Shown here in pieces: positions 13,308 to 57,134 of a stretch of DNA of 64,000 bases (the stretch's first letter is position 1; every line of letters begins with the position of its first letter). Both the position numbers and the translations under genes were made by a program. The DNA comes from Trypanosoma brucei (taxonomy: Eukaryota). The stretch covers positions 640,001-704,000 of the forward strand of contig CP000071.1 in the NCBI GenBank assembly GCA_000002445.1. Reading direction: 5' to 3'. The notes beneath the pieces are model-generated. The model saw nothing but the letters and a program-made list of their open reading frames with translations, did no database searches and was not told where the DNA came from.

Positions 13308-13499
13308 TACAAAGAAAATAAATTGCATGTGATAAGTAAAAAAAAAAACAGCACACAACCTACCCCAGAAGAAGTACACTGTAACCGCAACCATTTACCA
13401 CTACAACTAAAAAACTTATTCACCATTAAGAAAATGGTAGTGATACTTCTTACAAAACAACTCGTGAAGGCAGACGGGTACGTTAAATACTTGTGAGGG

Positions 13500-13915
13500 T
13501 GCCAGTGATTATACGTAATGTCTTTGCTACAGGTGATTGTACGATATGACCATACCGACTAAACCAACCGAGATCAATGAGGCATGAAATGTTCCCGCCC
13601 TGTTTTCAATTAAGTGACGGTGTGATTACAGACAGGACGTAAGTGAGTCAATGTCAATATCTCCGTATTACACCATGAGGACTATTGTCCCCCGTGTCTG
13701 ACCGCCGCTTCCACCTCCTCTCTCCCTTCTTTTCTCCTTTCTTGTTTCTTCTCTTTCACTTACACATGATGTCATTTCGTATTCTGCAATACTGACAATA
13801 ACTTGAGCGAGACAAGACATATTTGACTACTGGCAACTGAAACCCGCCACCCTCTCGGATTCTTTGGTCCTCCACTAGTTACTCAACGGTATTTCACTTT
13901 AGCTCAGCGTATATA
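13500..13915 (+). repeat. X element copy 1 (about 416 bp non-coding repeat containing a 64-nt polypyrimidine tract)
   Basis: tgccagtgattatacgtaatgtctttgctacagg ... ctttagctcagcgtata recurs at 17194-17607 and 51294-51710. Confidence 0.85.
13702..13765 (+). promoter_or_regulatory. long polypyrimidine tract (candidate trans-splicing/polyadenylation coupling signal) inside X element
   Basis: ccgccgcttccacctcctctctcccttcttttctcctttcttgtttcttctctttcacttacac; essentially pure pyrimidine for about 64 nt, followed by AG dinucleotides; same tract in all three X copies. Confidence 0.4.
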
Positions 13916-14364
13916 TGAATATAACGTCCACGGAGCTATAAGATGTTCCCATTACCTACCTTTATTGTTATCACGAGGCTCAAAAGAACACACTGAGCGT
14001 GTACCAATGCCCAGTGAGTGGGACAGCCATCGAAGATAAGTGTTTGTTTTACGGCAATGAGGTTCGAATGCGCCTGACGGTTTTTGTCCGACGTGGTGTG
14101 GGAAACGCCTCAAAGAAGTTACTGCACCTACACCTTCATTTTCACGGGTATATATTATCCCTGGTCACTAATTGATGTTTGGTATGTTTAATCTGTCACT
14201 GAACACTACTCACTTGTTTCCCCAGTGTAAGTGTGTTATCTTTCCCGTCTGTGCATTCACATGAATTTTAACTTTTATTACTCATAAATTATGTTTTGCC
14301 TCAATTATATAGACACCGCTTTATACGCAATTTTAAGCAAGGAAGTCCAACAAGGTGAATTATA

Positions 14365-14964
14365 ATGGGTTGTGGAGGTTCAGCTCCTGCTAACAAAGAC
14401 AAGCATGTGGGTGCAGATCCACCAAAACCTTCAGAGCATTCGGAACATTCAAAACCTTCAGATCCTTCAGATCCTGCTGATGCTACTCGATTTAAGCAGT
14501 TTTGCACACTTCCACTACATGACAAGGATAAGCCAGTTGCTGCTGCAGCAATTAGGGTTACCGACCCCAAGTGTATTTCGGATATTTTACCTCCGGAATT
14601 CCTTGAGGGAAAGAAGGTGCATAATGAATTTTGTGCAATTACTCTCTCCTTCGATGATGGAAAGCCGGAGGATGAAGGCCTTTTTGAGAAGTTGAAGGAA
14701 TTGGAAGGTACTTCCATCGAATTGAAACCAACCCATATTGTGATGAATGAAAAAGTCGCCGCCATTGGGGTGTGTAATAATGATGAATTCCCCTGCCAGG
14801 ACGCACACCCGCATATCCTCGTTGCAACTGCTCCAGATGCCACACAGGAAGATATTGATGATGTAACCAAGAAAGGAAAGATTAAGATATTTTGCGCGAG
14901 AAAACTTCCCGATCTGCCACCTGATATCACCATCCCAGGCGAGTTTCGTTTCATGCACTGGTGA
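14365..14964 (+). CDS. acylated 2H-phosphoesterase-like protein, A-type (degenerate H-x-T-x motifs), copy 1 of 4
   Basis: 199 aa. N-terminal MGCGGS has Gly2 and Cys3 for acylation and Ser6, and is followed by a P/S/D/E-rich linker. Clear homolog of gene B over its full length, but motif 1 is FCAITLSFDDG (catalytic His lost) and motif 2 is HPHILVATAP (Thr to Leu). Confidence 0.75.
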   Translation: MGCGGSAPANKDKHVGADPPKPSEHSEHSKPSDPSDPADATRFKQFCTLPLHDKDKPVAAAAIRVTDPKCISDILPPEFLEGKKVHNEFCAITLSFDDGKPEDEGLFEKLKELEGTSIELKPTHIVMNEKVAAIGVCNNDEFPCQDAHPHILVATAPDATQEDIDDVTKKGKIKIFCARKLPDLPPDITIPGEFRFMHW

Positions 14965-16023
14965 GTATTTCCCTGTTCCTTGTGTTTCAATGGTTTCACA
15001 AGAGTACATATGAATTGTTGTAAGTGTGCTGGCAGTTGCTGTTACTCTGATCGATCAAAGAGTTAGTGGTACTGCGCTTCATTACTTTATTACTTTTGCT
15101 ATTTTGTTTTACGAATTTACTTGCCTTTGTCCCTTCTTACTTTCCTTTTGATAACCTTTAGATATTTGCGTGTGGAGGTTTTGGTTTACTGTTATCCACA
15201 TCTGGGGCTATATTCCCTTCATTTGAATTTTATTATTGCGGTATTGACTTTTTCTTTCAAAGAAGATGATGAACATTGGAATAACGAATAGGGACGATAC
15301 GAGGGGAATGAAGAAAAGGCAGAAAAATGATACGGAGAGGAGGGAAAGACAAAATACAAACAACATGTGGGAGAGATATTTTTGCTTTGCTTTGGTTTGA
15401 TATCTGTTTTGTTTGTTTTTTTTCGTTGTGTTCGATGTTTTTTTGATCTTATTTTCCGAGACTTTATTATACAGGATTTGTTTAACTTATGTACTTTATT
15501 ACCTATTGCTTGTGTGCCATTGTTGTGTTACTATGAAACATTTATTGGTGTGGCAGAATAAAATGTGTTTTGGCATTGCTTTCCACAAGTAACCGAAGGG
15601 CACCAAATATTTGCTACGGGAGAGCACTGAAATGAAAGGAAACAACTGAACACACTGAGCGTGTACCAATGCCCAGTGAGTGGGACAGCCATCGAAGATA
15701 AGTGTTTGTTTTACGGCAATGAGGTTCGAATGCGCCTGACGGTTTTTGTCCGACGTGGTGTGGGAAACGCCTCAAAGAAGTTACTGCACCTACACCTTCA
15801 TTTTCACGGGTATATATTATCCCTGGTCACCAATTGATGTTTGGTATGTTTAATCTGTCACTGAACACTACTCACTTGTTTCCCCAGTGTAAGTGTGTTA
15901 TCTTTCCCGTCTGTGCATTCACATGAATTTTAACTTTTATTACTCATAAATTATGTTTTGCCTCAATTATATAGACACCGCTTTATACGCAATTTTAAGC
16001 AAGAAAGTCCAACAAGGTGACTG

Positions 16024-16584
16024 ATGATGGGTTGTGGAGGTTCTAAATTGTCTGCTAAGAGCAAACAAGCGGATGCGGATCCACCAAAGCCTTCAGATCC
16101 TGCTGATGCTCATCGATTTGAGCGGATTTGTACACTTCCACTACATGATGGTGAGAAACCGATGATCTTCGGTGCAATTATGATAAATGATCTTGCCGCG
16201 GTCAGATCCCTTGTGCCTGCAGATTACCTTGAGGGCAAAAATATGCAGGATGAATTTCACATAACTACAATTTATCTTGGGGGGAAACCGCCACAAGACG
16301 ATGAACTTTTCAAAAAGTTACAAACGTTGGAAGGTACTTCCATCCAGGTGGCACCTGTCCGTATCGCGTCCGACGCAAAGGCAACAGCAATTGAAATTCG
16401 TAACAATAACGAATTCCCATGCCAAAATGTACACCCGCACATTACCATTGCTACTGCTCCCGGTGTACCAGCGAAGTATAGCAATGAGCTGCTAAGCAAA
16501 GTAAGCACTGAAACAAGCGACATCAAGGTAATGGAGTTGTCACCTGATGTATCCATTTCAGGTGTGTTTCAGTTTGTGCGGTGA
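16024..16584 (+). CDS. acylated LigT/CNPase-like 2H phosphoesterase, B-type (both H-x-T-x motifs intact); true start probably the second ATG at 16027 (MGCGGSK)
   Basis: 186 aa. MMGCGGSK N-terminus. Motif 1 EFHITTIYLGG matches the canonical 2H pattern h-H-h-T-h-x-[FY]-L-G. Motif 2 HPHITIATAP, about 62 residues later, matches p-H-I-T-h. From LQTLEGTS to the stop it is nucleotide-identical, apart from 3 SNPs, to the 3' end of the 48146..50689 gene. Confidence 0.75.
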   Translation: MMGCGGSKLSAKSKQADADPPKPSDPADAHRFERICTLPLHDGEKPMIFGAIMINDLAAVRSLVPADYLEGKNMQDEFHITTIYLGGKPPQDDELFKKLQTLEGTSIQVAPVRIASDAKATAIEIRNNNEFPCQNVHPHITIATAPGVPAKYSNELLSKVSTETSDIKVMELSPDVSISGVFQFVR

Positions 16585-17193
16585 TGAACACCTCTTTCTT
16601 CATGTTCTTTTCGGTATAACCTACAGAAGTAACGATGAGTACATTAACGGTTGTTGTTTGTTGTGCTCATCGATGAGGCATTAATACCACCCTTTGTTTT
16701 TCCTTTTTTTCTTCTTTGAATCATTAATAAATTTTATCTTGCTTTGTACAAACAATTTTACGTGATTTATTTTGTCCTTAGACGTAGACAATAATTTTGA
16801 TGATAGTGTTTATGTGGACGAATATATTTCTCTCCTTTGCAATTCACGATTGGATCCAAGTATATTGATGGGAACTTGTGACTTAGGGGAAACGAGTGGT
16901 GTGCTGACATGCTCTCGCAGCACTGATATTCCCCCATAATGCTATGCACTCTGAACTGCATGTGTTGTGTCTGTGTGTATGTGTATACATGGTGTGTCGT
17001 ATGTCCTTTTTGTCTCTGTACAACAATAACCTTATACTACGCATCTTGTTACATTCCAACTTTTTCTCTCTAAAAATATACCTAATTTTACAACAAATTA
17101 GGAGGAGGAGGAGTGTGTCTTAACATTGTTTATGTGCCGTATCGTGATGACAGATATTCAGCTGACGCCACACTCATCGGATGTAAGAAAATG

Positions 17194-17607
17194 TGCCAGT
17201 GATTATACGTAATGTCTTTGCTACAGGTGATTGTACGATATGACCATACCGACTAAACCAACCGAGATCAATGAGGCATGAAATGTTCCCGCCCCGTTTT
17301 CAATTAAGTGACGGTGTGATTACAGACAGGACGTAAGTGAGTCAATGTCAATATCTCCGTATTACACCATGAGGACTATTGTCCCCCGTGTCTGACCGCC
17401 GCTTCCACCTCCTCTCTCCCTTCTTTTCTCCTTTCTTGTTTCTTCTCTTTCACTTACACATGATGTCATTTCGTATTCTGCAATACTGACAATAACTTGA
17501 GCGAGACAAGACATATTTGACTACTGGCAACTGAAACCCGCCACCCTCTCGGATTCTTTGGTCCTCCACTAGTTACTCAACGGTATTTCACTTTAGCTCA
17601 GCGTATA
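17194..17607 (+). repeat. X element copy 2
   Basis: Same sequence as 13500-13915 and 51294-51710. Confidence 0.85.
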
Positions 17608-39739: not shown

Positions 39740-42700
39740 GTGGCTCACGCCATGGATACAACCAATGGCGGTGGGAACTGTAACGTTCGGGGCCTTGGGG
39801 GAAGTCTCATTCGGCTGTTGGAACTTTACCCTGTTAAGCAAGTAGCTGCCGATGAGGGAACCACGGAAACGGAGCAGGGTATGAGCAAAGAAGAAGTTAA
39901 CTCACCGTCACCGGTGAAATCGCAGAGGGAAGGGAACATGAAAAGGAATCGTGTGGTGAATTCCCATCCGCCCAAACAAGATGTACTAGATTGTGCCGAA
40001 GTGGGTCAGTACCTGATTGCGACGGGAAGTAAGGACAAGGTGTCGGCAATGCAAGCAAACGTTCTTGAGGTCAGATCGGCGCTCAGTGCTCCGTCTCCTG
40101 TGGCCATACCGAACGCGAATCAGTGTCCCTCGAACGTTCTCCTGACTCCTCTAGTACCTACCGGCGAGTATGTACCGTCCTATGACACGAAGGAGCAAAT
40201 AAAATATTCACTCGTCGGCGAGCCGGGCACTAGGTGCCAATCTCCTTTGCCTCTCTTCCGCGGGAGCCGTGTCGACGACCAGGTGCGGGAAGCAACGATG
40301 TTCTTCAGTAACCTCCTCGCAGCTCGGCAACACGAGTGTGCCGATCAGGAAATGGGGCCGCTTCATGGCGGCTCTGGTGCGCCGTATCAGCTGCCAGCGT
40401 TTTATGACATCTTGAGCCGAACCATCGGTACCTCCCGTAGTCGCGAGGCCGGCCAAGAATCGAGGGAAGCGGGTGGTTATCTTCCTCTAATTTCACCAGT
40501 TCATGCCGGTGCAACCTCCTCTGGGCGCCTGTTTAGAGGTGTGCGCCACAGTAGTGCTCGGTTGAGGTCAAATACGCCACTCGGCAATGACTTTTGTGTT
40601 GGTGGAGTATGCGGACTGATGGGTAGAAGACTGATAGGTGTGCCCGTGCATGACCGCAGGCTTAACGCGCATTTGATGTCATCGTGGGAAAAGGGCGTTA
40701 AGGCAAGGTTACCCGCGAGAAAGGCGTTCAAGGCCATAAAGTCCTCATGTTGGTGGCGGCTGGCGGGCTCACGTGAAGGATTGTTGCTGGCTGCGCGGCT
40801 CGTCAACCTCGATGCTGATGTTTACGAAAGTTTGCTGACACGCTGGGTGGATGGAATCCGCCACTCCTATACCCGGTTTGTGACCGTGAATGTTGATGCT
40901 TTTGTCTCAGAGGACATTGGCCAAAATTTAATTACTGGGCCAAGGGGGAGAAAGTTGGGACCTGTATTGCCCTTTAGTGGTTCTGAGGCGGTGATGAACT
41001 CGTTGTTCCCAGGTGACGTCGAATTGAGTGATATGTTGGGTGTGGCTCGACAACTAGGTTATTTGCAAATGGGAGGGGCCCTTTGCGAAGATGATGTGGC
41101 GCGAGTGTTGCAATGTGACACAAGAACTATCCAACGGGAGCTGCGTCGGCTCATGCTCCAGCGAAGTGGAGGGACCGTGCAGCCACTCGGTGTATTACCC
41201 ATATTTGAAGGGAAGGGATGCCGTTTATACGAACCTAATACCGCTATCAGACAGATTTCGAGGGCAATTCTGCGTGCGAGACGGAGGGCTGCAGCGGAGG
41301 AGGCCAAGAAGAAGGGCAGGAAAATTAGATTCAGCCTGCTTCCGGACGTTACGACGTGCTCTAGGGTTCTGCAGCGCCGTCTTCAAAAGATCGCCGCCAG
41401 CAGGCCAGGGGATGTTCAGGCTCTACTTGAGCAACTGGGGGTGCTTGCCGACGCCGTTAATAGCGGAGGATTAGAGAGTATAAAAAGCTGCCCCGAAGTG
41501 TTGAGTCGTCTCCAGGAAATTATTGCGGACATGCCCCCCGATGTGCAAGCTTCACTTCAGCAGCTGGGGTTCCTCACTGACGATAGCGGTAGGATTTCGG
41601 TGAGTTCTGACGGGCGGCCTCGTGTTTCCCGGGGCCGTTCCAGGAAGGCAGCAAACGTTGTGCCTAGCAACGTTCACAAATTTTTGAAGAAGCTGGACAA
41701 TATTTCTCGAACTATCACTGGTGGTGGCCCCCCGGAGTCGGATGGCTCCGCTGAACTTCTGCAGCGCGGTCTTCAAGAGATCGCCGCCAGCAGGCCAGGG
41801 GATGTTCAGGCTCTACTTGAGCAACTGGGGGTGCTTGCCGACGCCGTTAATAGCGGAGGATTAGAGAGTATAAAAAGCTGCCCCGAAGCGTTGAGTCGTC
41901 TCCAGGAGATTGCTGCCAGCATGCCTCCCGACGTACGAGCTTCACTTCAGCAGCTGGGGTTCCTTCCAGATGGTGACGGCGTAATTGGCGTTGAAAATTT
42001 GTGTGAAGTGGCGAAAAGACAGCAGGAACTAAGTTCTGGTGCTCCTCACCCGTCGGAGGGAATGCGGGGTGCGACAACTGAGGGGTTGAAGAGTCCAACA
42101 GAAGGCGCCTCGTTCAGTGTATCTGCACGCCGCAAAATTCGAAGGAGGACACCAAAAGTAGTGAAAATGGCAGCAGCAGACGAGAAGGGACCTATTGTAC
42201 ACAACGTGCCTCCATCTTCTGTGAAGGACCAAGGCGAAGGTCCCGCTGCCAGGGATAAATCGGCACTCTCCGCCTCCTCTCCGTTAGGTGACGAAGCAAC
42301 TGCCTGGCCCGGAAACCACGCGGCATTCGCCGTCGATGAGTCGGAGGCCGATGCAAAAGACCAGAGTTGGGAAGATACCGCATTTGGGACCAAAAAGGGG
42401 CTGTTGAAGAAGAGACGACGGTTGAGAAGTAAGACGTCCAGCGAGCTCGAGACCCTCACCGATGACGATGCAGAGAGGGCACTCTTTGCGGACAAGCATG
42501 CCAGTTTCGGCAAGCGGTCGTCCCCTGGAAGGTTTAGAGGGCGTACATCGCCCATGGGGGTTTTGGGAATTGAAAGTTTTCCAACTAGTGGAGATGCTGA
42601 TGATCCATTATCGGGCTTCGTTGCATCTCAGCTGAAGGAAAGCTATTCGGGGCCTCAGGAGGGTGAAGAAACAGACGATTACGAGTATACTCCGCGCGAG

Positions 42701-44239
42701 AGGAGCAGGATGAATCGATCAAGAGCACAGCCTGTGTTTTCTGAATGGGACACCGAACAACTACCCCCACAGTTGCCTTCTGGTGCCAAGGATCCCAGGC
42801 TCTTATCGCAGACGGCGAGCATATTGGTGTTTCCTAACAGCGGGAGGAGAGGAAGCAGAGCAGCATCCGTTGCGTCGCGAACGGCATGTAGTGATACTGA
42901 AAGTGTTCGAGGCGTGGAGGACCCGTGGGAGCTCAGCAGCATGTTCAGCAACGATGATAATGAACTTGCGCTGTTTCTCGCAACATTCCCTGATGAGGAA
43001 CGCCACGTACAATTGCGTCGGGAGGCGCACCGTGTCTTGGATGACATCAATGCCGGAAGCAAAGTTCTGGAGGAGTACGCGATAAAATTGAAGGTGCGGC
43101 CCTCGAGCATGGGCCCGTCTGCCGGAGCCGGAGGTGGAATGCAGCCGTGCGAGCAAGAGTGGACTGAACGGGACGAGCAGATGGAGAAGCGTATGCTTGA
43201 GTGCAGAGTGGACATTCAGAGCATGGTGGAGCGCTTCAAGGCAGAGGCGCAGGAGGAGTATGCCGACCTCTGGCGTACGCTTCAGGAGCTTCGGAAACGA
43301 GTGGAGGTCCAAGAAGCTTTGCTTGAGGAGACCAAGTTGGATATAAACCGTCTTTCGTATCCTATGGAGGGTGAAGACACTGATGCCTTCGCACTGAGGC
43401 TGACGCGCGAGGTGAATGCATTTGCCGAACAAAACAAACTGGACCCGCAGCAGCTGAAAGATTTGACAACCGCGAAGCAGGACCGTGAAGCCGCCGTGCG
43501 CAGCTTTCTAGAAAGCTTTGCGCGAACGCGCGGCCGACGGGGAGGTGTAAGTGTTGGGTGCCAATGCACACCAAAAGATCTGGGGTACATCGACACGGAA
43601 GTACTAGAACTTAACAAACAAATGGAGGATCTACAATACCATGCACGTGGCCTGCTTAATTCGATTAAGCTTGTTGTTATATCTATGGGGAATGTACTAA
43701 GTTTCCACTCCGCACTTGAGCTGGAGTCGACATGCAAGCGTTGCTTTTGTATCTTCGAGGAACCCCGGACCTTATGGCCCTGTGGACATTCGTTTTGCTT
43801 GCATTGCCTTACGCAGATGATCTCCAAGGGAGGCGAACTTATATGCGATGAATGTGGGACGCTCTGCCTGGTTGGTTACACACCGAACTTTGCCATTGAA
43901 ATGGTGGCCGGCTACCAACTTATGTGGATCAACTCCGCTGAGGACGATGTGAGCGAGGATTCCTTGTGTAGTTCACCTTCCCCCAAAAGCAGCCTCACGA
44001 GCAGTAACAGTAAAGGCAGTAAACCCTCATCTCATGCAGGGCAAAAGCGTCGTACAGTTGAGAAGGTGCTGGCGGGTCTGCTAAAGGACCTTCTTAGTAC
44101 ACAGGGCTCAGGCAAAGCCACAAGGAAGACAGAGCGGAAGTCAAAGAAGCCCTCCAAGTCAACCTCTGGCGAGTTACCTCTACCGCCGTTGAAAGGGGGC
44201 CTTCCACCGTCGGCGGCAACTAAGGTTCAGTGTGCTTGA
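39740..44239 (+). CDS. large RING-finger (C3HC4) protein with coiled-coil and an internal 130-aa repeat; putative E3 ubiquitin ligase
   Basis: C-terminal CKRCFCIFEEPRTLWPCGHSFCLHCLTQMISKGGELICDECGTLC is a RING-HC. Long coiled-coil before it. Two copies of LQ(R/K)IAASRPGDVQALLEQLGVLADAVNSGGLESIKSCPE.LSRLQEI..MPPDV.ASLQQLGFL. Confidence 0.75.
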   Translation: MAHAMDTTNGGGNCNVRGLGGSLIRLLELYPVKQVAADEGTTETEQGMSKEEVNSPSPVKSQREGNMKRNRVVNSHPPKQDVLDCAEVGQYLIATGSKDKVSAMQANVLEVRSALSAPSPVAIPNANQCPSNVLLTPLVPTGEYVPSYDTKEQIKYSLVGEPGTRCQSPLPLFRGSRVDDQVREATMFFSNLLAARQHECADQEMGPLHGGSGAPYQLPAFYDILSRTIGTSRSREAGQESREAGGYLPLISPVHAGATSSGRLFRGVRHSSARLRSNTPLGNDFCVGGVCGLMGRRLIGVPVHDRRLNAHLMSSWEKGVKARLPARKAFKAIKSSCWWRLAGSREGLLLAARLVNLDADVYESLLTRWVDGIRHSYTRFVTVNVDAFVSEDIGQNLITGPRGRKLGPVLPFSGSEAVMNSLFPGDVELSDMLGVARQLGYLQMGGALCEDDVARVLQCDTRTIQRELRRLMLQRSGGTVQPLGVLPIFEGKGCRLYEPNTAIRQISRAILRARRRAAAEEAKKKGRKIRFSLLPDVTTCSRVLQRRLQKIAASRPGDVQALLEQLGVLADAVNSGGLESIKSCPEVLSRLQEIIADMPPDVQASLQQLGFLTDDSGRISVSSDGRPRVSRGRSRKAANVVPSNVHKFLKKLDNISRTITGGGPPESDGSAELLQRGLQEIAASRPGDVQALLEQLGVLADAVNSGGLESIKSCPEALSRLQEIAASMPPDVRASLQQLGFLPDGDGVIGVENLCEVAKRQQELSSGAPHPSEGMRGATTEGLKSPTEGASFSVSARRKIRRRTPKVVKMAAADEKGPIVHNVPPSSVKDQGEGPAARDKSALSASSPLGDEATAWPGNHAAFAVDESEADAKDQSWEDTAFGTKKGLLKKRRRLRSKTSSELETLTDDDAERALFADKHASFGKRSSPGRFRGRTSPMGVLGIESFPTSGDADDPLSGFVASQLKESYSGPQEGEETDDYEYTPRERSRMNRSRAQPVFSEWDTEQLPPQLPSGAKDPRLLSQTASILVFPNSGRRGSRAASVASRTACSDTESVRGVEDPWELSSMFSNDDNELALFLATFPDEERHVQLRREAHRVLDDINAGSKVLEEYAIKLKVRPSSMGPSAGAGGGMQPCEQEWTERDEQMEKRMLECRVDIQSMVERFKAEAQEEYADLWRTLQELRKRVEVQEALLEETKLDINRLSYPMEGEDTDAFALRLTREVNAFAEQNKLDPQQLKDLTTAKQDREAAVRSFLESFARTRGRRGGVSVGCQCTPKDLGYIDTEVLELNKQMEDLQYHARGLLNSIKLVVISMGNVLSFHSALELESTCKRCFCIFEEPRTLWPCGHSFCLHCLTQMISKGGELICDECGTLCLVGYTPNFAIEMVAGYQLMWINSAEDDVSEDSLCSSPSPKSSLTSSNSKGSKPSSHAGQKRRTVEKVLAGLLKDLLSTQGSGKATRKTERKSKKPSKSTSGELPLPPLKGGLPPSAATKVQCA
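41371..41967 (+). repeat. Intragenic tandem duplication with 390-bp period: about 207 bp at 41371-41577 is near-identical to 41761-41967
   Basis: gcagcgc(c/g)gtcttcaa(a/g)agatcgccgccagcaggccaggggatgttcaggctctacttgagcaactgggggtgcttgccgacgccgttaatagcggaggattagagagtataaaaagctgccccgaag... present twice. Confidence 0.85.
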
Positions 44240-48145: not shown

Positions 48146-50689
48146 ATGGACGCGCAAGTTGGAGTTGTTCAGCAACCGGTGACCACTAGTTCAACGATTT
48201 GGGTTGGGGAATGTCAATGTCCAAAATGGAAAAAATCTACCCACCGTGCGGTTGAGCAAAACCTGACGACTTCACTAGAATGCGGTGGAGAAAGAGATGC
48301 ACTCCTTGATGTTGCTTGCGGAAGTGGCATTGACATAGATTCTTTCCTTAGAGAGAAGTGGATTCGTGTAGCATTTACTTCTAGTTTCGGAAGTAACAGT
48401 AGGGTCCGCGTGCGGGCGAGAAGGGTGAGGATAGGTAGCCATGAGTTTGTCGTGGTGGAACGGAACGTTTTTGGGTGTGATGACTCGGTATATCGAAAGG
48501 ATAACAAACTTTGGGAGGGTTTGCCCCGTGGGCAGGCCTGCGTATTTGTCGAATCGGGCGACAGGGCTGGGTTTATACCCATAGGTAGACTTCAAGGCCT
48601 GCGGAAGTTCAATTCCTTCGACGGACCATATGGTATTAGGGGAAGGCAACCCGTTAGTGCTGTTGCGATGGAGGCCATCGACGGGGACTGTGGTCATATC
48701 TCTGCGTTCGTGCACACTGGAGAGCGGTATTGGCTTGTTGGGAACAAAGATACTCACCTATTAGTAAGCTTCAGTGTACCAGAGAAAGATATATTCTCCA
48801 ACACCGCCGAAGGTGGTGCCATAACGAATGAGGGGGACAAGCCACTTCAGGGGGCTAACTATTCACCTCCGTCGCTAGCGGTGCGGATAGCAAGGCTCTG
48901 GGGTCAAACGCTTCGAGCACTTCCCGATGAAAAATCATTCGGTTTGCATGAGTTTTTGTCTTCAAACAGGTACACGGCTTGCTTCGACGCTGTGCTACAG
49001 GACTGTGGACACCTTGTCGACTACGGTGAAGATGAACTTCTACAGTTTTACGCTCTGACCCAAAGTGGTGAATCGCTAGCAGAGGGCTTGTGCGTGGATC
49101 CAGTTAGCGCTATAGTAAACCTGCAGTCCTTTGGTCTTCGTGTAGTCCCCTTCCATAGTGAGCAATGCTCATCAGTACCTGAAATTCTGGATCTTGGAAC
49201 GGACGAGTATTCGCAGTACGGGGGCCAGGTTGCGCGTCGTCTGAACTGCAGAGGAGCGGTTATGTACGGCTTGGACGCCCAGGGCATTGTGGTTCGGTTG
49301 TGGAAGTTACCTTCGCACGCATACGTGGTTGAGCGTGCGGCACAGGAGGCCATTGTGACGCATCGCCTGAGCGGTACCGTCTTGCGCGACAAGTTGCGGA
49401 GGAAGTTAGACCGCTTGCCGAAAGAAATACGACGATGTGTCACTGAATGGAGTTCAGCCCGTCTTGAGCCATTGTTGAACCTTGCAGCGTGGTTGCACAT
49501 TATGGGGAAAGTAACACCGGAGGTTGGCCTCGATGGATTGCAGGAGGTCCGTCGCAGTTGGATAACACTTCAACAGCAACTTGTGAAGCACACAAAGGAC
49601 ATGCGTGAGCACTTACAACTGTACGAGCCCCCAGTGGCCGAGGCAGCTATCAATAACCCGGACGTCATCATGTGTGTGGGGCCACAAGGTTGTGGCAAGT
49701 CCACGTTTTGTCGCGCTTTCTGTGTCTTACTCCAGAAGGTAGGTCAGAAGCCTCGTTGGATCAACCAGGACGAAGTGGGTGGTCGAAATGAGTTTATCGA
49801 GGCCATCCGACGTGCCAAGGAATCCGACTGTACACATATTCTTATAGATAAAATGAATCTTGACGATGCGGCACGAAATGCTGACTACGCCTCTTTCAAC
49901 CTAAAAACGATAACCGTCGCTTGGGTACATCCTTGTGATGTAGACGTTATGGTAAGTACGTGCCTAGAAAGAGTATGCCATCGCGGCAATGCACATCGCA
50001 CATTCAGAGGAACCGTCTCCCCGGGGAAAAAGAGGAAAATGATGACAATTATCCGTGGGTGTGTACAGCGATGCGAACCACCAACAACAGGGATTGTTAT
50101 TGAGGCCAATGTCTTGGACCCCCCGGCCATAACCATAGAATCTGTGTGGAAAGGTCTCTGCCGACACACAATGTCTGAACTTCCAGATATTAAAGATCTT
50201 TCCGTTGCCGACGCGTTGGAAATTGCTCGTAGGTACGAATTACTCTTGTCACACTCATCGCGTCCCTTCAATTGCGGCATCATAAAGGTTGTGAATTCAG
50301 AACTTCTTGTCGCCCTTGTGCCTGCAGATTACCTTGAGGGCAAAAAAATGCGCAAGGAACTCGACATCAGCACAATCTATCTTGGTGACAGATCCCATTT
50401 CGATCTTACGCTTCTGTCAGAGTTACAAACGTTGGAAGGTACTTCCATCCAGGTGGCACCTGTCCGTATCGCGTCCGACGCAAAGGCAACAGCAATTGAA
50501 ATTCGTAACAATAACGAATTCCCATGCCAAAATGCACACCCACACATTACCATTGCTACTGCTCCCGGTGTACCAGCGAAGTATAGCAATGAGCTGCTAA
50601 GCAAAGTAAGCACTGAAACAAGCGACATCAAGGTAATGGAGGTGTCACCTGATGTATCCATTTCAGGTGTGTTTCAGTTTGTGCGGTGA
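48146..50689 (+). CDS. multidomain protein: about 480-aa N-terminal domain, then polynucleotide-kinase-like P-loop, then C-terminal LigT/CNPase-like 2H domain. The architecture resembles CNPase and the kinase-CPD module of Trl1-type tRNA ligase
   Basis: Walker A VIMCVGPQGCGKSTF at about aa 510, with downstream D-x-x-N-L-D (HILIDKMNLDD). The C-terminal 150 aa are homologous to genes A and B: motif 2 HPHITIATAP is intact, motif 1 is ELDISTIYLGD (His to Asp). The last about 260 nt and the 3' flank are identical to gene B. Confidence 0.7.
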   Translation: MDAQVGVVQQPVTTSSTIWVGECQCPKWKKSTHRAVEQNLTTSLECGGERDALLDVACGSGIDIDSFLREKWIRVAFTSSFGSNSRVRVRARRVRIGSHEFVVVERNVFGCDDSVYRKDNKLWEGLPRGQACVFVESGDRAGFIPIGRLQGLRKFNSFDGPYGIRGRQPVSAVAMEAIDGDCGHISAFVHTGERYWLVGNKDTHLLVSFSVPEKDIFSNTAEGGAITNEGDKPLQGANYSPPSLAVRIARLWGQTLRALPDEKSFGLHEFLSSNRYTACFDAVLQDCGHLVDYGEDELLQFYALTQSGESLAEGLCVDPVSAIVNLQSFGLRVVPFHSEQCSSVPEILDLGTDEYSQYGGQVARRLNCRGAVMYGLDAQGIVVRLWKLPSHAYVVERAAQEAIVTHRLSGTVLRDKLRRKLDRLPKEIRRCVTEWSSARLEPLLNLAAWLHIMGKVTPEVGLDGLQEVRRSWITLQQQLVKHTKDMREHLQLYEPPVAEAAINNPDVIMCVGPQGCGKSTFCRAFCVLLQKVGQKPRWINQDEVGGRNEFIEAIRRAKESDCTHILIDKMNLDDAARNADYASFNLKTITVAWVHPCDVDVMVSTCLERVCHRGNAHRTFRGTVSPGKKRKMMTIIRGCVQRCEPPTTGIVIEANVLDPPAITIESVWKGLCRHTMSELPDIKDLSVADALEIARRYELLLSHSSRPFNCGIIKVVNSELLVALVPADYLEGKKMRKELDISTIYLGDRSHFDLTLLSELQTLEGTSIQVAPVRIASDAKATAIEIRNNNEFPCQNAHPHITIATAPGVPAKYSNELLSKVSTETSDIKVMEVSPDVSISGVFQFVR

Positions 50690-51293
50690 TGAACACCTCT
50701 TTCTTCATGTTCTTTTCGGTATAACCTACAGAAGTAACGATGAGTACATTAACGGTTGTTGTTTGTTGTGCTCATCGATGAGGCATTAATACCACCCTTT
50801 GTTTTTCCTTTTTTTCTTCTTTGAATCATTAATAAATTTTATCTTGCTTTGTACAAACAATTTTACGTGATTTATTTTGTCCTTAGACGTAGACAATAAT
50901 TTTGATGATAGTGTTTATGTGGACGAATATATTTCTTTGCAATTCACGATTGGATCCAAGTATATTGATGGGAACTTGTGACTTAGGGGAAACGAGTGGT
51001 GTGCTGACATGCTCTCGCAGCACTGATATTCCCCCATAATGCTATGCACTCTGAACTGCATGTGTTGTGTCTGTGTGTATGTGTATACATGGTGTGTCGT
51101 ATGTCCTTTTTGTCTCTATACAACAATAACCTTATACTACGCATCTTGTTACATTCCAACTTTTTCTCTCTAAAAATATACCTAATTTTACAACAAATTA
51201 GGAGGAGGAGGAGTGTGTCTTAACATTGTTTATGTGCCGTATCGTGATGACAGATATTCAGCTGACGCCACACTCATCGGATGTAAGAAGATG

Positions 51294-51710
51294 TGCCAGT
51301 GATTATACGTAATGTCTTTGCTACAGGTGATTGTACGATATGACCATACCGACTAAACCAACCGAGATCAATGAGGCATGAAATGTTCCCGCCCCGTTTT
51401 CAATTAAGTGACGGTGTGATTACAGACAGGATGTAAGTGAGTCAATGTCAATATCTCCGTATTACACCATGAGGACTATTGTCCCCCGTGTCTGACCGCC
51501 GCTTCCACCTCCTCTCTCCCTTCTTTTCTCCTTTCTTGTTTCTTCTCTTTCACTTACACATGATGTCATTTCGTATTCTGCAATACTGACAATAACTTGA
51601 GCGAGACAAGACATATTTGACTACTGGCAACTGAAACCCGCCACCCTCTCGGATTCTTTGGTCCTCCACTAGTTACTCAACGGTATTTCACTTTAGCTCA
51701 GCGTATATAT
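51294..51710 (+). repeat. X element copy 3
   Basis: Same sequence as 13500-13915. Confidence 0.85.
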
Positions 51711-52158
51711 GAATATAACGTCCACGGAGCTATAAGATGTTCCCATTACCTACCTTTATTGTTATCACGAGGCTCAAAAGAACACACTGAGCGTGTACCA
51801 ATGCCCAGTGAGTGGGACAGCCATCGAAGATAAGTGTTTGTTTTACGGCAATGAGGTTCGAATGCGCCTGACGGTTTTTGTCCGACGTGGTGTGGGAAAC
51901 GCCTCAAAGAAGTTACTGCACCTACACCTTCATTTTCACGGGTATATATTATCCCTGGTCACTAATTGATGTTTGGTATGTTTAATCTGTCACTGAACAC
52001 TACTCACTTGTTTCCCCAGTGTAAGTGTGTCATCTTTCCCGTCTGTGCATTCACATGAATTTTAACTTTTATTACTCATAAATTATGTTTTGCCTCAATT
52101 ATATAGACACCGCTTTATACGCAATTTTAAGCAAGGAAGTCCAACAAGGTGAATTATA

Positions 52159-52758
52159 ATGGGTTGTGGAGGTTCAGCTCCTGCTAACAAAGACAGGCAT
52201 GTGGGTGCAGATCCACCAAAACCTTCAGAGCATTCGGAACATTCAAAACCTTCAGATCCTTCAGATCCTGCTGATGCTACTCGTATTCACAAAATCTGTA
52301 CACTTCCACTACATGACAAGGATAAGCCAGTTGCTGCTGCAGCAATTAGGGTTACCGACCCCAAGTGTATTTCGGATATTTTACCTCCGGAATTCCTTGA
52401 GGGAAAGAAGGTGCATAATGAATTTTGTGCAATTACTCTCTCCTTCGATGATGGAAAGCCGGAGGATGAAGGCCTTTTTGAGAAGTTGAAGGAATTGGAA
52501 GGTACTTCCATCGAATTGAAACCAACCCATATTGTGATGAATGAAAAAGTCGCCGCCATTGGGGTGTGTAATAATGATGAATTCCCCTGCCAGGACGCAC
52601 ACCCGCATATCCTCGTTGCAACTGCTCCAGATGCCACACAGGAGGATATTGATGATGTAACCAAGAAAGGAAAGATTGAGATATTTTGCGCGAGAAAACT
52701 TCCCGATCTGCCACCTGATATCACCATCCCAGGTGAGTTTCGTTTCATGCACTGGTGA
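52159..52758 (+). CDS. acylated 2H-phosphoesterase-like protein, A-type, copy 2
   Basis: 199 aa; differs from copy 1 at a few residues (ATRIHKICTLP vs ATRFKQFCTLP; KGKIEIF vs KGKIKIF). Confidence 0.75.
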   Translation: MGCGGSAPANKDRHVGADPPKPSEHSEHSKPSDPSDPADATRIHKICTLPLHDKDKPVAAAAIRVTDPKCISDILPPEFLEGKKVHNEFCAITLSFDDGKPEDEGLFEKLKELEGTSIELKPTHIVMNEKVAAIGVCNNDEFPCQDAHPHILVATAPDATQEDIDDVTKKGKIEIFCARKLPDLPPDITIPGEFRFMHW

Positions 52759-53821
52759 GTATTTCCCTGTTCCTTGTGTTTCAATGGTTTCACAAGAGTA
52801 CATATGAATTGTTGTAAGTGTGCTGGCAGTTGCTGTTACTCTGATCGATCAAAGAGTTAGTGGTACTGCGCTTCATTACTTTATTACTTTTGCTATTTTG
52901 TTTTACGAATTTACTTGCCTTTGTCCCTTCTTACTTTCCTTTTGATAACCTTTAGATATTTGCGTGTGGAGGTTTTGGTTTACTGTTATACACATCTGGG
53001 GCTATATTCCCTTCATTTGAATTTTATTATTGCGGTATTGACTTTTTCTTTCAAAGAAGATGATGAACGTTGGAATAACGAATAGGGACGATACGAGGGG
53101 AATGAAGAAAAGGCAGAAAAATGATACGGAGAGGAGGGAAAGACAAAATACAAACAATATGTGGGAGAGATATTTTTGCTTTGCTTTGGTTTGATATCTG
53201 TTTTGTTTGTTTTTTTTTCGTTGTGTTCGATGTTTTTTTGATCTTATTTTCCGAGACTTTATTATACAGGATTTGTTTAACTTATGTACTTTATTACCTA
53301 TTGCTTGTGTGCCATTGTTGTGTTACTATGAAACATTTATTGGTGTGGCAGAGTAAAATGTGTTTTGGCATTGCTTTCCACAAGTAACCGAAGGGCACCA
53401 AATATTTGCTACGGGAGAGCACTGAAATGAAAGGAAACAACTAAACACACTGAGCGTGTACCAATGCCCAGTGAGTGGGACAGCCATCGAAGATAAGTGT
53501 TTGTTTTACGGCAATGAGGTTCGAATGCGCCTGACGGTTTTTGTCCGACGTGGTGTGGGAAACGCCTCAAAGAAGTTACTGCACCTACACCTTCATTTTC
53601 ACGGGTATATATTATCCCTTGTCACTAATTGATGTTTGGTATGTTTAATCTGTCACTGAACACTACTCACTTGTTTCCCCAGTGTAAGTGTGTCATCTTT
53701 CCCGTCTGTGCATTCACATGAATTTTAACTTTTATTACTCATAAATTATGTTTTGCCTCAATTATATAGACACCGCTTTATACGCAATTTTAAGCAAGGA
53801 AGTCCAACAAGGTGAATTATA

Positions 53822-54421
53822 ATGGGTTGTGGAGGTTCAGCTCCTGCTAACAAAAACAGGCATGTGGGTGCAGATCCACCAAAACCTTCAGAGCATTCGG
53901 AACATTCAAAACCTTCAGATCCTTCAGATCCTGCTGATGCTACTCGTATTCACAAAATCTGTACACTTCCACTACATGACAAGGATAAGCCAGTTGCTGC
54001 TGCAGCAATTAGGGTTACCGACCCCAAGTGTATTTCGGATATTTTACCTCCGGAATTCCTTGAGGGAAAGAAGGTGCATAATGAATTTTGTGCAATTACT
54101 CTCTCCTTCGATGATGGAAAGCCGGAGGATGAAGGCCTTTTTGAGAAGTTGAAGGAATTGGAAGGTACTTCCATCGAATTGAAACCAACCCATATTGTGA
54201 TGAATGAAAAAGTCGCCGCCATTGGGGTGTGTAACAATGATGAATTCCCCTGCCAGGACGCACACCCGCATATCCTCGTTGCAACTGCTCCAGATGCCAC
54301 ACAGGAGGATATTGATGATGTAACCAAGAAAGGAAAGATTAAGATATTTTGCGCGAGAAAACTTCCCGATCTGCCACCTGATATCACTATCCCAGGTGAG
54401 TTTCGTTTCATGCACTGGTGA
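53822..54421 (+). CDS. acylated 2H-phosphoesterase-like protein, A-type, copy 3
   Basis: 199 aa; ANKNRHVG variant, KGKIKIF. Confidence 0.75.
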   Translation: MGCGGSAPANKNRHVGADPPKPSEHSEHSKPSDPSDPADATRIHKICTLPLHDKDKPVAAAAIRVTDPKCISDILPPEFLEGKKVHNEFCAITLSFDDGKPEDEGLFEKLKELEGTSIELKPTHIVMNEKVAAIGVCNNDEFPCQDAHPHILVATAPDATQEDIDDVTKKGKIKIFCARKLPDLPPDITIPGEFRFMHW

Positions 54422-55484
54422 GTATTTCCCTGTTCCTTGTGTTTCAATGGTTTCACAAGAGTACATATGAATTGTTGTAGGTGTGCTGGCAGTTGCTGTT
54501 ACTCTGATCGATCAAAGAGTTAGTGGTACTGCGCTTCATTACTTTATTACTTTTGCTATTTTGTTTTACGAATTTACTTGCCTTTGTCCCTTCTTACTTT
54601 CCTTTTGATAACCTTTAGATATTTGCGTGTGGAGGTTTTGGTTTACTGTTATACACATCTGGGGCTATATTCCCTTCATTTGAATTTTATTATTGCGGTA
54701 TTGACTTTTTCTTTCAAAGAAGATGATGAACGTTGGAATAACGAATAGGGACGATACGAGGGGAATGAAGAAAAGGCAGAAAAATGATACGGAGGGGAGG
54801 GAAAGACAAAATACAAACAATATGTGGGAGAGATATTTTTGCTTTGCTTTGGTTTGATATCTGTTTTGTTTGTTTTTTTTTCGTTGTGTTCGATGTTTTT
54901 TTGATCTTATTTTCCGAGACTTTATTATACAGGATTTGTTTAACTTATGTACTTTATTACCTATTGCTTGTGTGCCATTGTTGTGTTACTATGAAACATT
55001 TATTGGTGTGGCAGAATAAAATGTGTTTTGGCATTGCTTTCCACAAGTAACCGAAGGGCACCAAATATTTGCTACGGGAGAGCACTGAAATGAAAGGAAA
55101 CAACTAAACACACTGAGCGTGTACCAATGCCCAGTGAGTGGGACAGCCATCGAAGATAAGTGTTTGTTTTACGGCAATGAGGTTCGAATGCGCCTGACGG
55201 TTTTTGTCCGACGTGGTGTGGGAAACGCCTCAAAGAAGTTACTGCACCTACACCTTCATTTTCACGGGTATATATTATCCCTGGTCACTAATTGATGTTT
55301 GGTATGTTTAATCTGTCACTGAACACTACTCACTTGTTTCCCCAGTGTAAGTGTGTCATCTTTCCCGTCTGTGCATTCACATGAATTTTAACTTTTATTA
55401 CTCATAAATTATGTTTTGCCTCAATTATATAGACACCGCTTTATACGCAATTTTAAGCAAGGAAGTCCAACAAGGTGAATTATA

Positions 55485-56084
55485 ATGGGTTGTGGAGGTT
55501 CAGCTCCTGCTAACAAAGACAGGCATGTGGGTGCAGATCCACCAAAACCTTCAGAGCATTCGGAACATTCAAAACCTTCAGATCCTTCAGATCCTGCTGA
55601 TGCTACTCGTATTCACAAAATCTGTACACTTCCACTACATGACAAGGATAAGCCAGTTGCTGCTGCAGCAATTAGGGTTACCGACCCCAAGTGTATTTCG
55701 GATATTTTACCTCCGGAATTCCTTGAGGGAAAGAAGGTGCATAATGAATTTTGTGCAATTACTCTCTCCTTCGATGATGGAAAGCCGGAGGATGAAGGCC
55801 TTTTTGAGAAGTTGAAGGAATTGGAAGGTACTTCCATCGAATTGAAACCAACCCATATTGTGATGAATGAAAAAGTCGCCGCCATTGGGGTGTGTAATAA
55901 TGATGAATTCCCCTGCCAGGACGCACACCCGCATATCCTCGTTGCAACTGCTCCAGATGCCACACAGGAGGATATTGATGATGTAACCAAGAAAGGAAAG
56001 ATTGAGATATTTTGCGCGAGAAAACTTCCCGATCTGCCACCTGATATCACCATCCCAGGTGAGTTTCGTTTCATGCACTGGTGA
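55485..56084 (+). CDS. acylated 2H-phosphoesterase-like protein, A-type, copy 4
   Basis: 199 aa; identical to copy 2. Confidence 0.75.
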   Translation: MGCGGSAPANKDRHVGADPPKPSEHSEHSKPSDPSDPADATRIHKICTLPLHDKDKPVAAAAIRVTDPKCISDILPPEFLEGKKVHNEFCAITLSFDDGKPEDEGLFEKLKELEGTSIELKPTHIVMNEKVAAIGVCNNDEFPCQDAHPHILVATAPDATQEDIDDVTKKGKIEIFCARKLPDLPPDITIPGEFRFMHW

Positions 56085-57134
56085 GTATTTCCCTGTTCCT
56101 TGTGTTTCAATGGTTTCACAAGAGTACATATGAATTGTTGTAAGTGTGCTGGCAGTTGCTGTTACTCTGATCGATCAAAGAGTTAGTGGTACTGCGCTTC
56201 ATTACTTTATTACTTTTGCTATTTTGTTTTACGAATTTACTTGCCTTTGTCCCTTCTTACTTTCCTTTTGATAACCTTTAGATATTTGCGTGTGGAGGTT
56301 TTGGTTTACTGTTATCCACATCTGGGGCTATATTCCCTTCATTTGAATTTTATTATTGCGGTATTGACTTTTTCTTTCAAAGAAGATGATGAACGTTGGA
56401 ATAACGAATAGGGACGATACGAGGGGAATGAAGAAAAGGCAGAAAAATGATACGGAGAGGAGGGAAAGACAAAATACAAACAATATGTGGGAGAGATATT
56501 TTTGCTTTGCTTTGGTTTGATATCTGTTTTGTTTGTTTTTTTTTCGTTGTGTTCGATGTTTTTTTGATCTTATTTTCCGAGACTTTATTATACAGGATTT
56601 GTTTAACTTATGTACTTTATTACCTATTGCTTGTGTGCCATTGTTGTGTTACTATGAAACATTTATTGGTGTGGCAGAATAAAATGTGTTTTGGCATTGC
56701 TTTCCACAAGTAACCGAAGGGCACCAAATATTTGCTATGGGATAGCAATTTAAATGCAGGGAAGGTGAAGGAGGGCAATAATTGGACAATGTAATTTTTT
56801 TTTACTGTTATGTGTTCGATTTGGGTAGGAAAATGTGATTGTGGGAGCTTGTCCTGGGGTGATGGAGGTATTTTTCATTTTTTTGTGATGGTAATGATTT
56901 TTTTTTTTTTGGTCGGCCCTTTGTGTCAACTAGCATCTTCTTTGGAGTAGGTGCATATGTGCGTGCAGCTGCTTTTTAGTGAGCACCTCGTGTTTTAAGT
57001 GTCTTTTTTTATTATACCTTTTTGCTATTACCTTCTTGTTTTTTGCTTTTGAAACGTTTTTGATAATACACTAAAAGAGTAGACAGAAAACAGTAGTTGG
57101 TATATAGAAGAACTTATTAGTCGCTTCTCGAGTT

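Follow-up and report, generated by a model that had tools for sequence, protein, structure and literature searches.

A tandemly amplified protein of Trypanosoma brucei, POMP39, as a putative pseudo-enzyme derived from a Trl1-type cyclic phosphodiesterase domain

We describe a small gene family in a 64,000-nucleotide stretch of Trypanosoma brucei TREU927 chromosome 8 (GenBank contig CP000071.1, positions 640,001 to 704,000; hereafter the window) whose product, POMP39, appears to be a pseudo-enzyme of the Trl1-type cyclic phosphodiesterase (CPD) family. POMP39 is encoded by four near-identical genes, here called A. The window also holds B (Tb927.8.2080), a single paralog with an intact 2H active site, and Tb927.8.2250, a large gene whose product ends in a CPD domain. 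We are highly confident that A is a retained, expressed and catalytically dead paralog of CPD derivation. A fuller picture, in which A is a dually acylated, non-catalytic 2H-fold membrane protein amplified for dosage, is the one we lean towards, and a role as a non-catalytic membrane scaffold or binder is a serious but tentative proposal.

The A genes, B and Tb927.8.2250 lie on the forward strand, and positions are those of the window. The ORF (open reading frame) listing bears out the four A frames of 199 amino acids that the original prediction, made from the sequence alone, had placed at 14365, 52159, 53822 and 55485, and the A proteins and B exactly match the TREU927 entries XP_847040, XP_847041 and XP_847059-61. 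A copy 1, which is dispersed (Tb927.8.2070, POMP39-1; 14365-14964), corresponds to XP_847040. Copy 2 (Tb927.8.2260, POMP39-2; 52159-52758) corresponds to XP_847059/XP_847061, and copy 4 (Tb927.8.2280, POMP39-4; 55485-56084) has a coding sequence identical to that of copy 2. Copy 3 (53822-54421) corresponds to XP_847060 and is present in the orthogroup table; it is Tb927.8.2270 by gene order and, presumably, POMP39-3. Gene IDs and POMP39 names were taken from supplementary tables (PMC10361982, PMC10998879, PMC7861527). The label "Proteasome maturation protein 39A" used in T. b. equiperdum is evidently a mis-expansion of POMP. B occupies 16024-16584; its ORF carries one additional Met upstream of MGCGGS, and its true start is likely at 16027.

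A aligns with B along its full length (42-45% identity, E about 1e-40), as had been predicted, the only interruption being a 12-residue indel in the linker. B passes the Pfam threshold for PF08302 (E 2e-11), as does the C-terminus of Tb927.8.2250; A itself stays below it (E 0.061), reaching 13.2 bits where 23 are needed. Because the A-B match is so strong and B belongs to PF08302, the homology of A to the family is solid by transitivity. An exhaustive HMMER search with an A/B/CPD profile against 1.84 billion representatives returned 59 proteins, nearly all of them C-terminal domains of a ligase-like/kinase/CPD architecture in kinetoplastids and other protists, and a 25-domain family profile matched the kinase-CPD portion of Candida albicans Trl1 (6TZM/6U00) over both HxT motifs and the downstream SN motif. 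AlphaFold2, supplied with the 25-sequence alignment, gave a confident model of A residues 49-199, with a predicted local distance difference test score (pLDDT) of 88.2 and a predicted template modelling (TM) score of 0.83. In this model A takes the fold characteristic of 2H proteins, which is built on a central antiparallel beta sheet, concave and with pseudo-twofold symmetry, and Foldseek agrees (TM 0.60-0.69). An earlier model from a six-sequence alignment was poor (pLDDT 57), yet pointed to CNPase; it was replaced by the 25-sequence model. As modelled, A appears to keep the 2H fold of the CNPase/Trl1-CPD clade.

The active site is where A departs from its relatives. Members of the 2H superfamily bind the scissile phosphate through two H-x-[TS] motifs, and B reads H-I-T at both; A has neither. 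Motif 1 is Cys90-Ala-Ile92 (52426-52434; in the other copies from 14632, 54089 and 55752) and motif 2 is His150-Ile-Leu152 (52606-52614; from 14812, 54269 and 55932). The replacement of the first His and the second Thr, both anticipated by the original prediction, is thus confirmed, and the Thr of motif 1 is gone as well. Further downstream, the family-wide Y-S-N is Asp163-Ile-Asp165 in A (52645-52653), the Asn of this motif corresponding to Asn782 of Candida Trl1. Among 30 other CPD domains of the family, conservation at the H, T, N, H, T, Y, S and N columns ranges from 87 to 100% (26 to 30 domains), with each catalytic His present in 29 or 30. At the same eight columns A has C90, I92, D146, H150, L152, D163, I164 and D165, and only the distal His is retained.

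According to structure and mutagenesis of Candida Trl1, the phosphate is held by His682, Thr684, His767 and Thr769 and contacted through water by Gln678, Asn763 and Asn782, and stacking on the terminal nucleoside is imputed to two aromatics, Tyr647 and His687 (PMC7145591). With B numbered from its MGCGGS start, Tyr647 corresponds to F48 in B, A60 in A and Cys in Tb927.8.2250; Gln678 to Q74, H86 and Arg; His682 to H78, C90 and Asp740; Thr684 to T80, I92 and Ser742; and His687 to Y83, S95 and Tyr (the aromatic being kept, as in B). The remaining four, Asn763, His767, Thr769 and Asn782, are kept in Tb927.8.2250; they are N134, H138, T140 and N153 in B and D146, H150, L152 and D165 in A. B therefore retains all nine positions in kind and A only one, the distal His. 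Around what was the phosphate site, A has gained three Asp residues (D146, D163 and D165). With eight positions lost together, catalysis by A is very unlikely, and so is nucleotide binding of the canonical kind. The prediction is that A does not hydrolyse 2',3'-cyclic phosphates and does not hold a nucleotide phosphate in the way usual for the family. The suggestion that A is catalytically dead is supported, with a loss that goes deeper than first noted.

Upstream of the domain lie two parts that bear on where A would act. The MGCGGS leader (52159-52176; also at 14365, 53822 and 55485, and at 16027 in B) is common to all A copies and B, as predicted, and MGCGGSA fits the PROSITE N-myristoylation pattern PS00008 with a Cys at position 3. 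A would accordingly be myristoylated on Gly2 and palmitoylated on Cys3, and so tethered to a membrane. A 9-bp periodic repeat identified with Tandem Repeats Finder (52220-52269; other copies at 14426-14475, 53883-53932 and 55546-55595) encodes the Pro/Ser/acidic linker (PSEHSEHSKPSDPSDP) of about 45 residues, which is disordered as judged from the first structure model (pLDDT below 50 for residues 1-52) and would act as a spacer between anchor and 2H-fold domain. Linker length differs between alleles: TREU927 B lacks 12 residues that are present in T. b. equiperdum B, and one T. b. equiperdum A lacks four. This polymorphism is consistent with repeat slippage or exchange between A and B. The C-terminal part is the 150-residue domain (residues 49-199). 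It contains five Cys (C70, C90, C137, C144 and C177), compared with one in B; the additional residues could serve for further acylation, respond to redox state or belong to a new active site.

Several observations indicate that A is kept rather than merely left over. It is full-length in all four TREU927 copies, in T. b. gambiense, in T. equiperdum and in one Logan assembly, whose 1.4-kb contig differs from A copy 1 by two synonymous and two non-synonymous substitutions. Between A and B, the non-synonymous divergence (dN) is 0.41 and the synonymous divergence (dS) about 1.3, giving a dN/dS of about 0.3, a value that averages the A and B branches and has a saturated denominator. In the NNxEFPCQxxHPHI block around motif 2, the proportion of synonymous differences (pS) is 0.86 and that of non-synonymous differences (pN) 0.18, which argues that the conservation of this block reflects constraint and not gene conversion. 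Against this background the A branch has evolved rapidly: with T. congolense as outgroup, 47 substitutions are unique to A and 10 to B (chi-square 24), and the excess persists, more weakly, with four further outgroups. The family is also restricted in its distribution. In an OrthoFinder table A and B form one orthogroup with a single T. congolense member, which adjoins the Tb927.8.2250 orthologue, and with no member in T. vivax or T. cruzi; the exhaustive HMMER search found no A-type protein outside the T. brucei clade.

The protein is abundant, which answers the call for an expression check that accompanied the original prediction. In a published stumpy-form proteome POMP39-1 was covered to 84% by 14 peptides, with an iTop3 of 0.4-1.0e9; the same table gives about 1e10 for beta-tubulin, 4-5e7 for B and about 2e8 for Tb927.8.2250. 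These published values put POMP39-1 roughly 20-fold above B and within about tenfold of tubulin. In the proteome paper POMP39-1 is regarded as specific to the bloodstream form. POMP39-2 and Tb927.8.2250 are both listed among Alba4-proximal proteins under starvation in a published table. A thus combines homology to an enzyme, loss of the catalytic residues and a fold that is predicted to be kept, and it is expressed, intact and under constraint, as retained pseudo-enzymes are. The view that A is not undergoing simple decay holds up on its intact ORFs, including those of other subspecies, on its dN/dS relative to B and on its high protein abundance.

Some points weigh against this account. The dN/dS relative to B is an average over both branches, taken at saturated dS. 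Comparisons between A copies, which had been proposed as a test of purifying selection, are uninformative about selection: non-coding DNA is as homogenised as coding DNA, and most coding differences fall in one 18-nucleotide conversion patch. One T. b. equiperdum A copy (P0009, DPX39_080021200) encodes 212 amino acids with a frameshifted C-terminus; it could be a real pseudogenised copy or an indel error in long reads. The structure of A is predicted, and the alignment that drives the model consists of active homologues. Mutation of the proximal His of Candida Trl1 to Ala (H682A) gives a sick but viable mutant (PMC7145591), so no single change is decisive and loss of the proximal His alone would be no proof of inactivity. 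As to location, the table entry for POMP39-2 gives a predicted "cell membrane", the Gene Ontology term "axoneme" and no TrypTag localisation, whereas a fraction of mitochondrial outer membrane is what the name POMP39 indicates; POMP39 was not found in the supplement of a lipid-raft proteome. The compartment of A may be the plasma/flagellar membrane or the mitochondrial outer membrane.

The genes are arranged at two loci. Locus 1 comprises, in order, a putative BEACH-domain gene, a 415-bp element here called X (13499-13913), A copy 1 in a unit at 13987-15647 (direct-repeat analysis and self-BLAST), B, and a 1-kb flank that ends in X. Locus 2 begins with Tb927.8.2250 and its 1-kb flank ending in X (51293-51707), followed by the three remaining A genes. 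These form a tandem array of three head-to-tail 1663-bp units (51781-56763; direct repeats and self-BLAST), each containing an A gene and intergenic DNA, with start-to-start spacings of exactly 1663 and 1663 bp and 99.3-99.5% identity between units. The unit length had been given correctly, and the array is real but slightly wider than its predicted borders of 51783-56736. Its head-to-tail, same-strand order and near-identity of both coding and intergenic DNA are those of trypanosomatid tandem arrays. With four A genes to one B, the apparently dead form does have the higher copy number. Copies 2 and 4 share one coding sequence and the others lie 4-15 nucleotides apart. The expectation that copies would differ by a few conservative substitutions was right about the full-length ORFs and not about the substitutions, since K174E is a charge reversal and codons 42-47 are not conserved in kind: nine nucleotides differ within 18 (14488-14505 versus 52282-52299, 53945-53962 and 55608-55625). 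These codons read RFKQFC in the dispersed A copy, in other subspecies and in T. b. equiperdum B, and RIHKIC in all three tandem TREU927 copies, and the patch looks like a micro gene-conversion tract.

Self-BLAST connects the two loci. The flank of about 1 kb downstream of Tb927.8.2250 (50690-51707) is common to B (16585-17607), and X, its last 415 bp, recurs upstream of A copy 1 (13499-13913 and 17193-17607 are 99.8% identical). The segment 16208-17607 is 96.9% identical to 50313-51707. In the A units, intergenic and coding DNA are homogenised to an equal degree, which implies that gene conversion exchanges sequence between the two loci over a distance of 34-38 kb. B is a mosaic (15648-17607 compared with 51780-52229 and 50313-51707). 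The 5' flank of B, together with its first 24 codons, matches the A units at 95% identity. At the other end, the last 90 or so codons and roughly 1 kb of 3' flank are approximately 97-100% identical to Tb927.8.2250, and the central 85 or so codons are distinct from both. B and Tb927.8.2250 have a common 3' untranslated region (UTR), and A has a separate one. A simple recent chimera of A and Tb927.8.2250 was considered for B and rejected on the basis of the central codons, which are unlike either; B is better regarded as an older gene whose two ends have undergone conversion.

Tb927.8.2250 (48146-50689), which is listed under the same description as B, encodes 847 amino acids with DUF7920 (ligase-like), Trl1-type kinase and CPD domains (Pfam). 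Its proximal motif is D-I-S (50363-50371), with GAC where B has the CAC of H-I-T, and the proximal catalytic His is thereby missing; T. b. equiperdum also has D-I-S, and H-x-T is retained in the T. congolense, T. vivax, T. theileri and T. grayi orthologues. The N-terminal lobe is altered elsewhere too, with the beta1 aromatic replaced by Cys and the Gln four residues before the His by Arg. The C-terminal lobe, which is the portion homogenised with B, is intact. Given these changes in the N-terminal lobe, B may hold the only fully intact CPD site of the subfamily in T. brucei. TbTrl1 has been described as a protein of 870 amino acids with two HVTV motifs (PMC4931112), and identification of the 847-residue Tb927.8.2250 as TbTrl1 was rejected on these grounds. 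In the DUF7920 domain (48146-49400), a conserved EKENGE (KxNG, similar to ligase motif I) is found in most family members, and a weak match to the RNA_ligase family PF09414 (E 1e-4) is seen in one member. The domain looks like an RNA-ligase-type nucleotidyltransferase. Its Lys is replaced in every Trypanosoma sequence examined (EAIDGD, amino acids 176-181 here, or ELIDGE), which suggests that the ligase-like domain, too, is inactive across Trypanosoma.

Taken together, the domain of A likely derives from the CPD domain of the neighbouring Tb927.8.2250 by way of a small B-type gene, a type that survives as B itself and as the single small gene of T. congolense. A partial duplication of the CPD-coding 3' end of the large gene would have come first, before T. 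brucei and T. congolense separated. A would then have arisen from a B-type gene within the T. brucei lineage, diverged fast with loss of the active site and, finally, been amplified to four copies that gene conversion keeps near-identical. The small protein of T. congolense (P0011) belongs to the B type: its two motifs are intact. The annotated sequence does not begin with MGC. Its identity to the C-terminus of the adjacent large protein is 95%, and this homogenisation of small and large genes is independent of that in T. brucei.

For the function of A we tentatively propose that it acts without catalysis, in a structural or partner-binding capacity, and that its copy number would serve dosage. 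The alternative that fares best is that A behaves like a prozyme, binding B or the CPD domain of Tb927.8.2250 on the same membrane and activating, stabilising or positioning it. We regard this as unlikely. A and B have the acylation leader and linker in common, and the 95% identity of their 5' flanks and first 24 codons predicts co-targeting. Activators that are themselves dead paralogs are documented in T. brucei (PMC5201418, PMC3663545, 10.1101/776112). The division of active-site residues, nine of nine in B and one of nine in A, and the shared Alba4 proximity of POMP39-2 and Tb927.8.2250 would suit such a partnership. The roughly 20-fold abundance of A over B can be read in its favour; on the other side, a stoichiometric activator would not usually outnumber its enzyme to that extent. 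In T. congolense only the B-type gene is present, so B-type function does not depend on A. Furthermore, 2H enzymes are typically monomeric, with an active site that is internally pseudo-symmetric, and none is known to require a partner subunit.

An extension of this idea, which we consider quite unlikely, joins Tb927.8.2250, B and A into one membrane module in which catalytic competence has been redistributed, with A as a partner or, alternatively, with Cys90-His150 chemistry of its own. Tb927.8.2250 would contribute neither the ligase-motif Lys (missing genus-wide) nor the proximal CPD His (missing in T. brucei), B would hold the sole intact CPD site, and the abundant A would recruit or regulate as a prozyme-like or scaffold partner.

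The original prediction had offered a structural, regulatory or substrate-sequestering role; of these, sequestering is the least compatible with the residues found. As a decoy, A would bind 2',3'-cyclic or 2'/3'-phosphorylated nucleotides or RNA>p without turnover and buffer or localise them at a membrane. His150 and the NNxEFPCQxxHPHIxxATAP stretch are indeed kept between A and B despite saturated synonymous divergence, the 2H fold is retained in the predicted structure, and AKAP18, a 2H-fold domain that binds AMP, is among the structural neighbours. Both nucleoside-stacking positions are nevertheless gone (Tyr647 to Ala60 and His687 to Ser95). Of the four phosphate ligands three are replaced, none of the three water-bridging Asn/Gln is left, and Asp146, Asp163 and Asp165 add negative charge at the former phosphate site. 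Nucleotide buffering is very unlikely on this account.

That A is a new enzyme, in which a Cys90-His150 pair in the old cleft performs a thiol-based reaction on a membrane-proximal substrate, is very unlikely indeed. In favour of the idea, Cys90 sits exactly in the proximal His column, His150 is retained, and the two His of Candida Trl1 contact the same phosphate, so that the positions face each other. The domain has gained Cys residues (five, compared with one in B), and A is both constrained and abundant. The argument is, however, purely geometric; Ile92, Leu152 and the three Asp are unlike any known Cys-His hydrolase site, and the known A sequences are 97-99% identical, which makes conservation of Cys90 uninformative. 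To our knowledge there is no precedent for a Cys-His neo-enzyme in the 2H superfamily.

Finally, the notion that A is a recently dead family headed for loss, its array a functionless by-product of ectopic recombination in a region prone to it, draws on the accelerated A branch, the restriction to one clade, the missing copy-level selection signal under uniform homogenisation and the frameshifted T. b. equiperdum copy, and is made highly improbable by the full-length genes in TREU927, T. b. gambiense, T. equiperdum and the Logan assembly, the dN/dS of about 0.3 relative to B (averaged over both branches) with a constrained block at saturated dS, the confidently predicted fold, and the presence of A among the more abundant stumpy-form proteins, a level at which a useless product would be costly.

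POMP39 is among the more abundant bloodstream and stumpy proteins, yet its annotation goes no further than the proteome of its discovery. It is already catalogued; its nature as a gutted, putatively lipid-anchored CPD and its origin from a neighbouring gene are absent from the literature that we searched, where just two papers mention it by name and neither of them takes up its fold. Reading it as a CPD derivative gives POMP39 a structural identity and, if true, would add a 2H-fold member to the short list of retained trypanosome pseudo-enzymes, which includes the prozymes and MCA4. The locus would record a stepwise domain capture, from partial duplication through gain of a membrane anchor and loss of the active site to amplification, with ongoing gene conversion linking the paralogs throughout the series. 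Restriction to the T. brucei clade and bloodstream enrichment may hint, speculatively, at a lineage-specific adaptation to the host. Should the module or the Cys-His chemistry prove true, A would represent the first pseudo-2H subunit with a function, or the first neo-2H enzyme, and in trypanosomes the fourth independent case of a "dead paralog" put to use, here on a lipid anchor.

Two further features of the window may be mentioned. Directly upstream of locus 1 lies a 3034-amino-acid ORF (4203-13307), which is BEACH/WD40-type by sequence motifs only; the X element at 13499-13913 starts about 190 bp past its stop codon. A 223-nucleotide direct repeat (91% identical, spacing 390 nucleotides) at 41367-41979 falls within a 1499-amino-acid ORF (39740-44239) and implies an internal protein repeat in its product.

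Comparison with known systems places A among several partial parallels. In AKAP18 both HxT motifs survive and hold the phosphate of AMP. The central domain of AKAP18/AKAP7 thus differs from A, in which these motifs are lost, and its structural similarity to A is much weaker than that of CNPase. The trypanosomatid prozymes (the AdoMetDC prozyme, the DHS paralog and the PRMT1 prozyme) follow the same genetic logic, a dead paralog beside an active or weakly active enzyme (PMC5201418, PMC3663545, 10.1101/776112). They differ in forming obligate hetero-oligomers with naturally oligomeric enzymes, whereas 2H enzymes are typically monomeric, and in being conserved across trypanosomatids, whereas A is limited to the T. 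brucei clade; A also far exceeds B in abundance. MCA4, from the same organism, is an inactive paralog in an enzyme family (the metacaspases), expressed mainly in bloodstream forms, held at the flagellar membrane by myristoylation and palmitoylation and retained for a non-catalytic role (PMC3220528). It resembles A as a bloodstream-enriched pseudo-enzyme with dual acylation, which in A is predicted, and a single Alba4-proximity list contains both MCA4 and POMP39-2. MCA4 is unrelated to A in fold and enzyme family, and its gene is not tandemly amplified in this manner; its inactivity, acylation, localisation and virulence role are experimental, and for A inactivity and acylation are predictions.

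CNPase offers the closest structural resemblance. It is lipid-anchored, very abundant and membrane-associated, and structural roles beyond catalysis have been discussed for it. A would likewise be an abundant 2H protein with a lipid anchor, in its case a predicted one, and the kinase-like plus 2H architecture of CNPase mirrors the kinase-CPD part of Tb927.8.2250. CNPase nevertheless keeps both HxT motifs and its activity, and its identity to A is 13-15%. Its anchor is C-terminal (isoprenylation and palmitoylation), in contrast to the predicted N-terminal myristoyl/palmitoyl signal of A. The Trl1-type CPD (PF08302; Candida albicans Trl1, 6TZM/6U00) is the family of origin and belongs to the same fold class. 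A differs from it in standing alone, as a domain of 150 residues that follows a lipidation leader and lies outside any ligase-kinase-CPD polypeptide; it scores below the Pfam threshold and has lost eight of nine active-site residues. A is a derived pseudo-member of the Trl1-type CPD family and not a working one.

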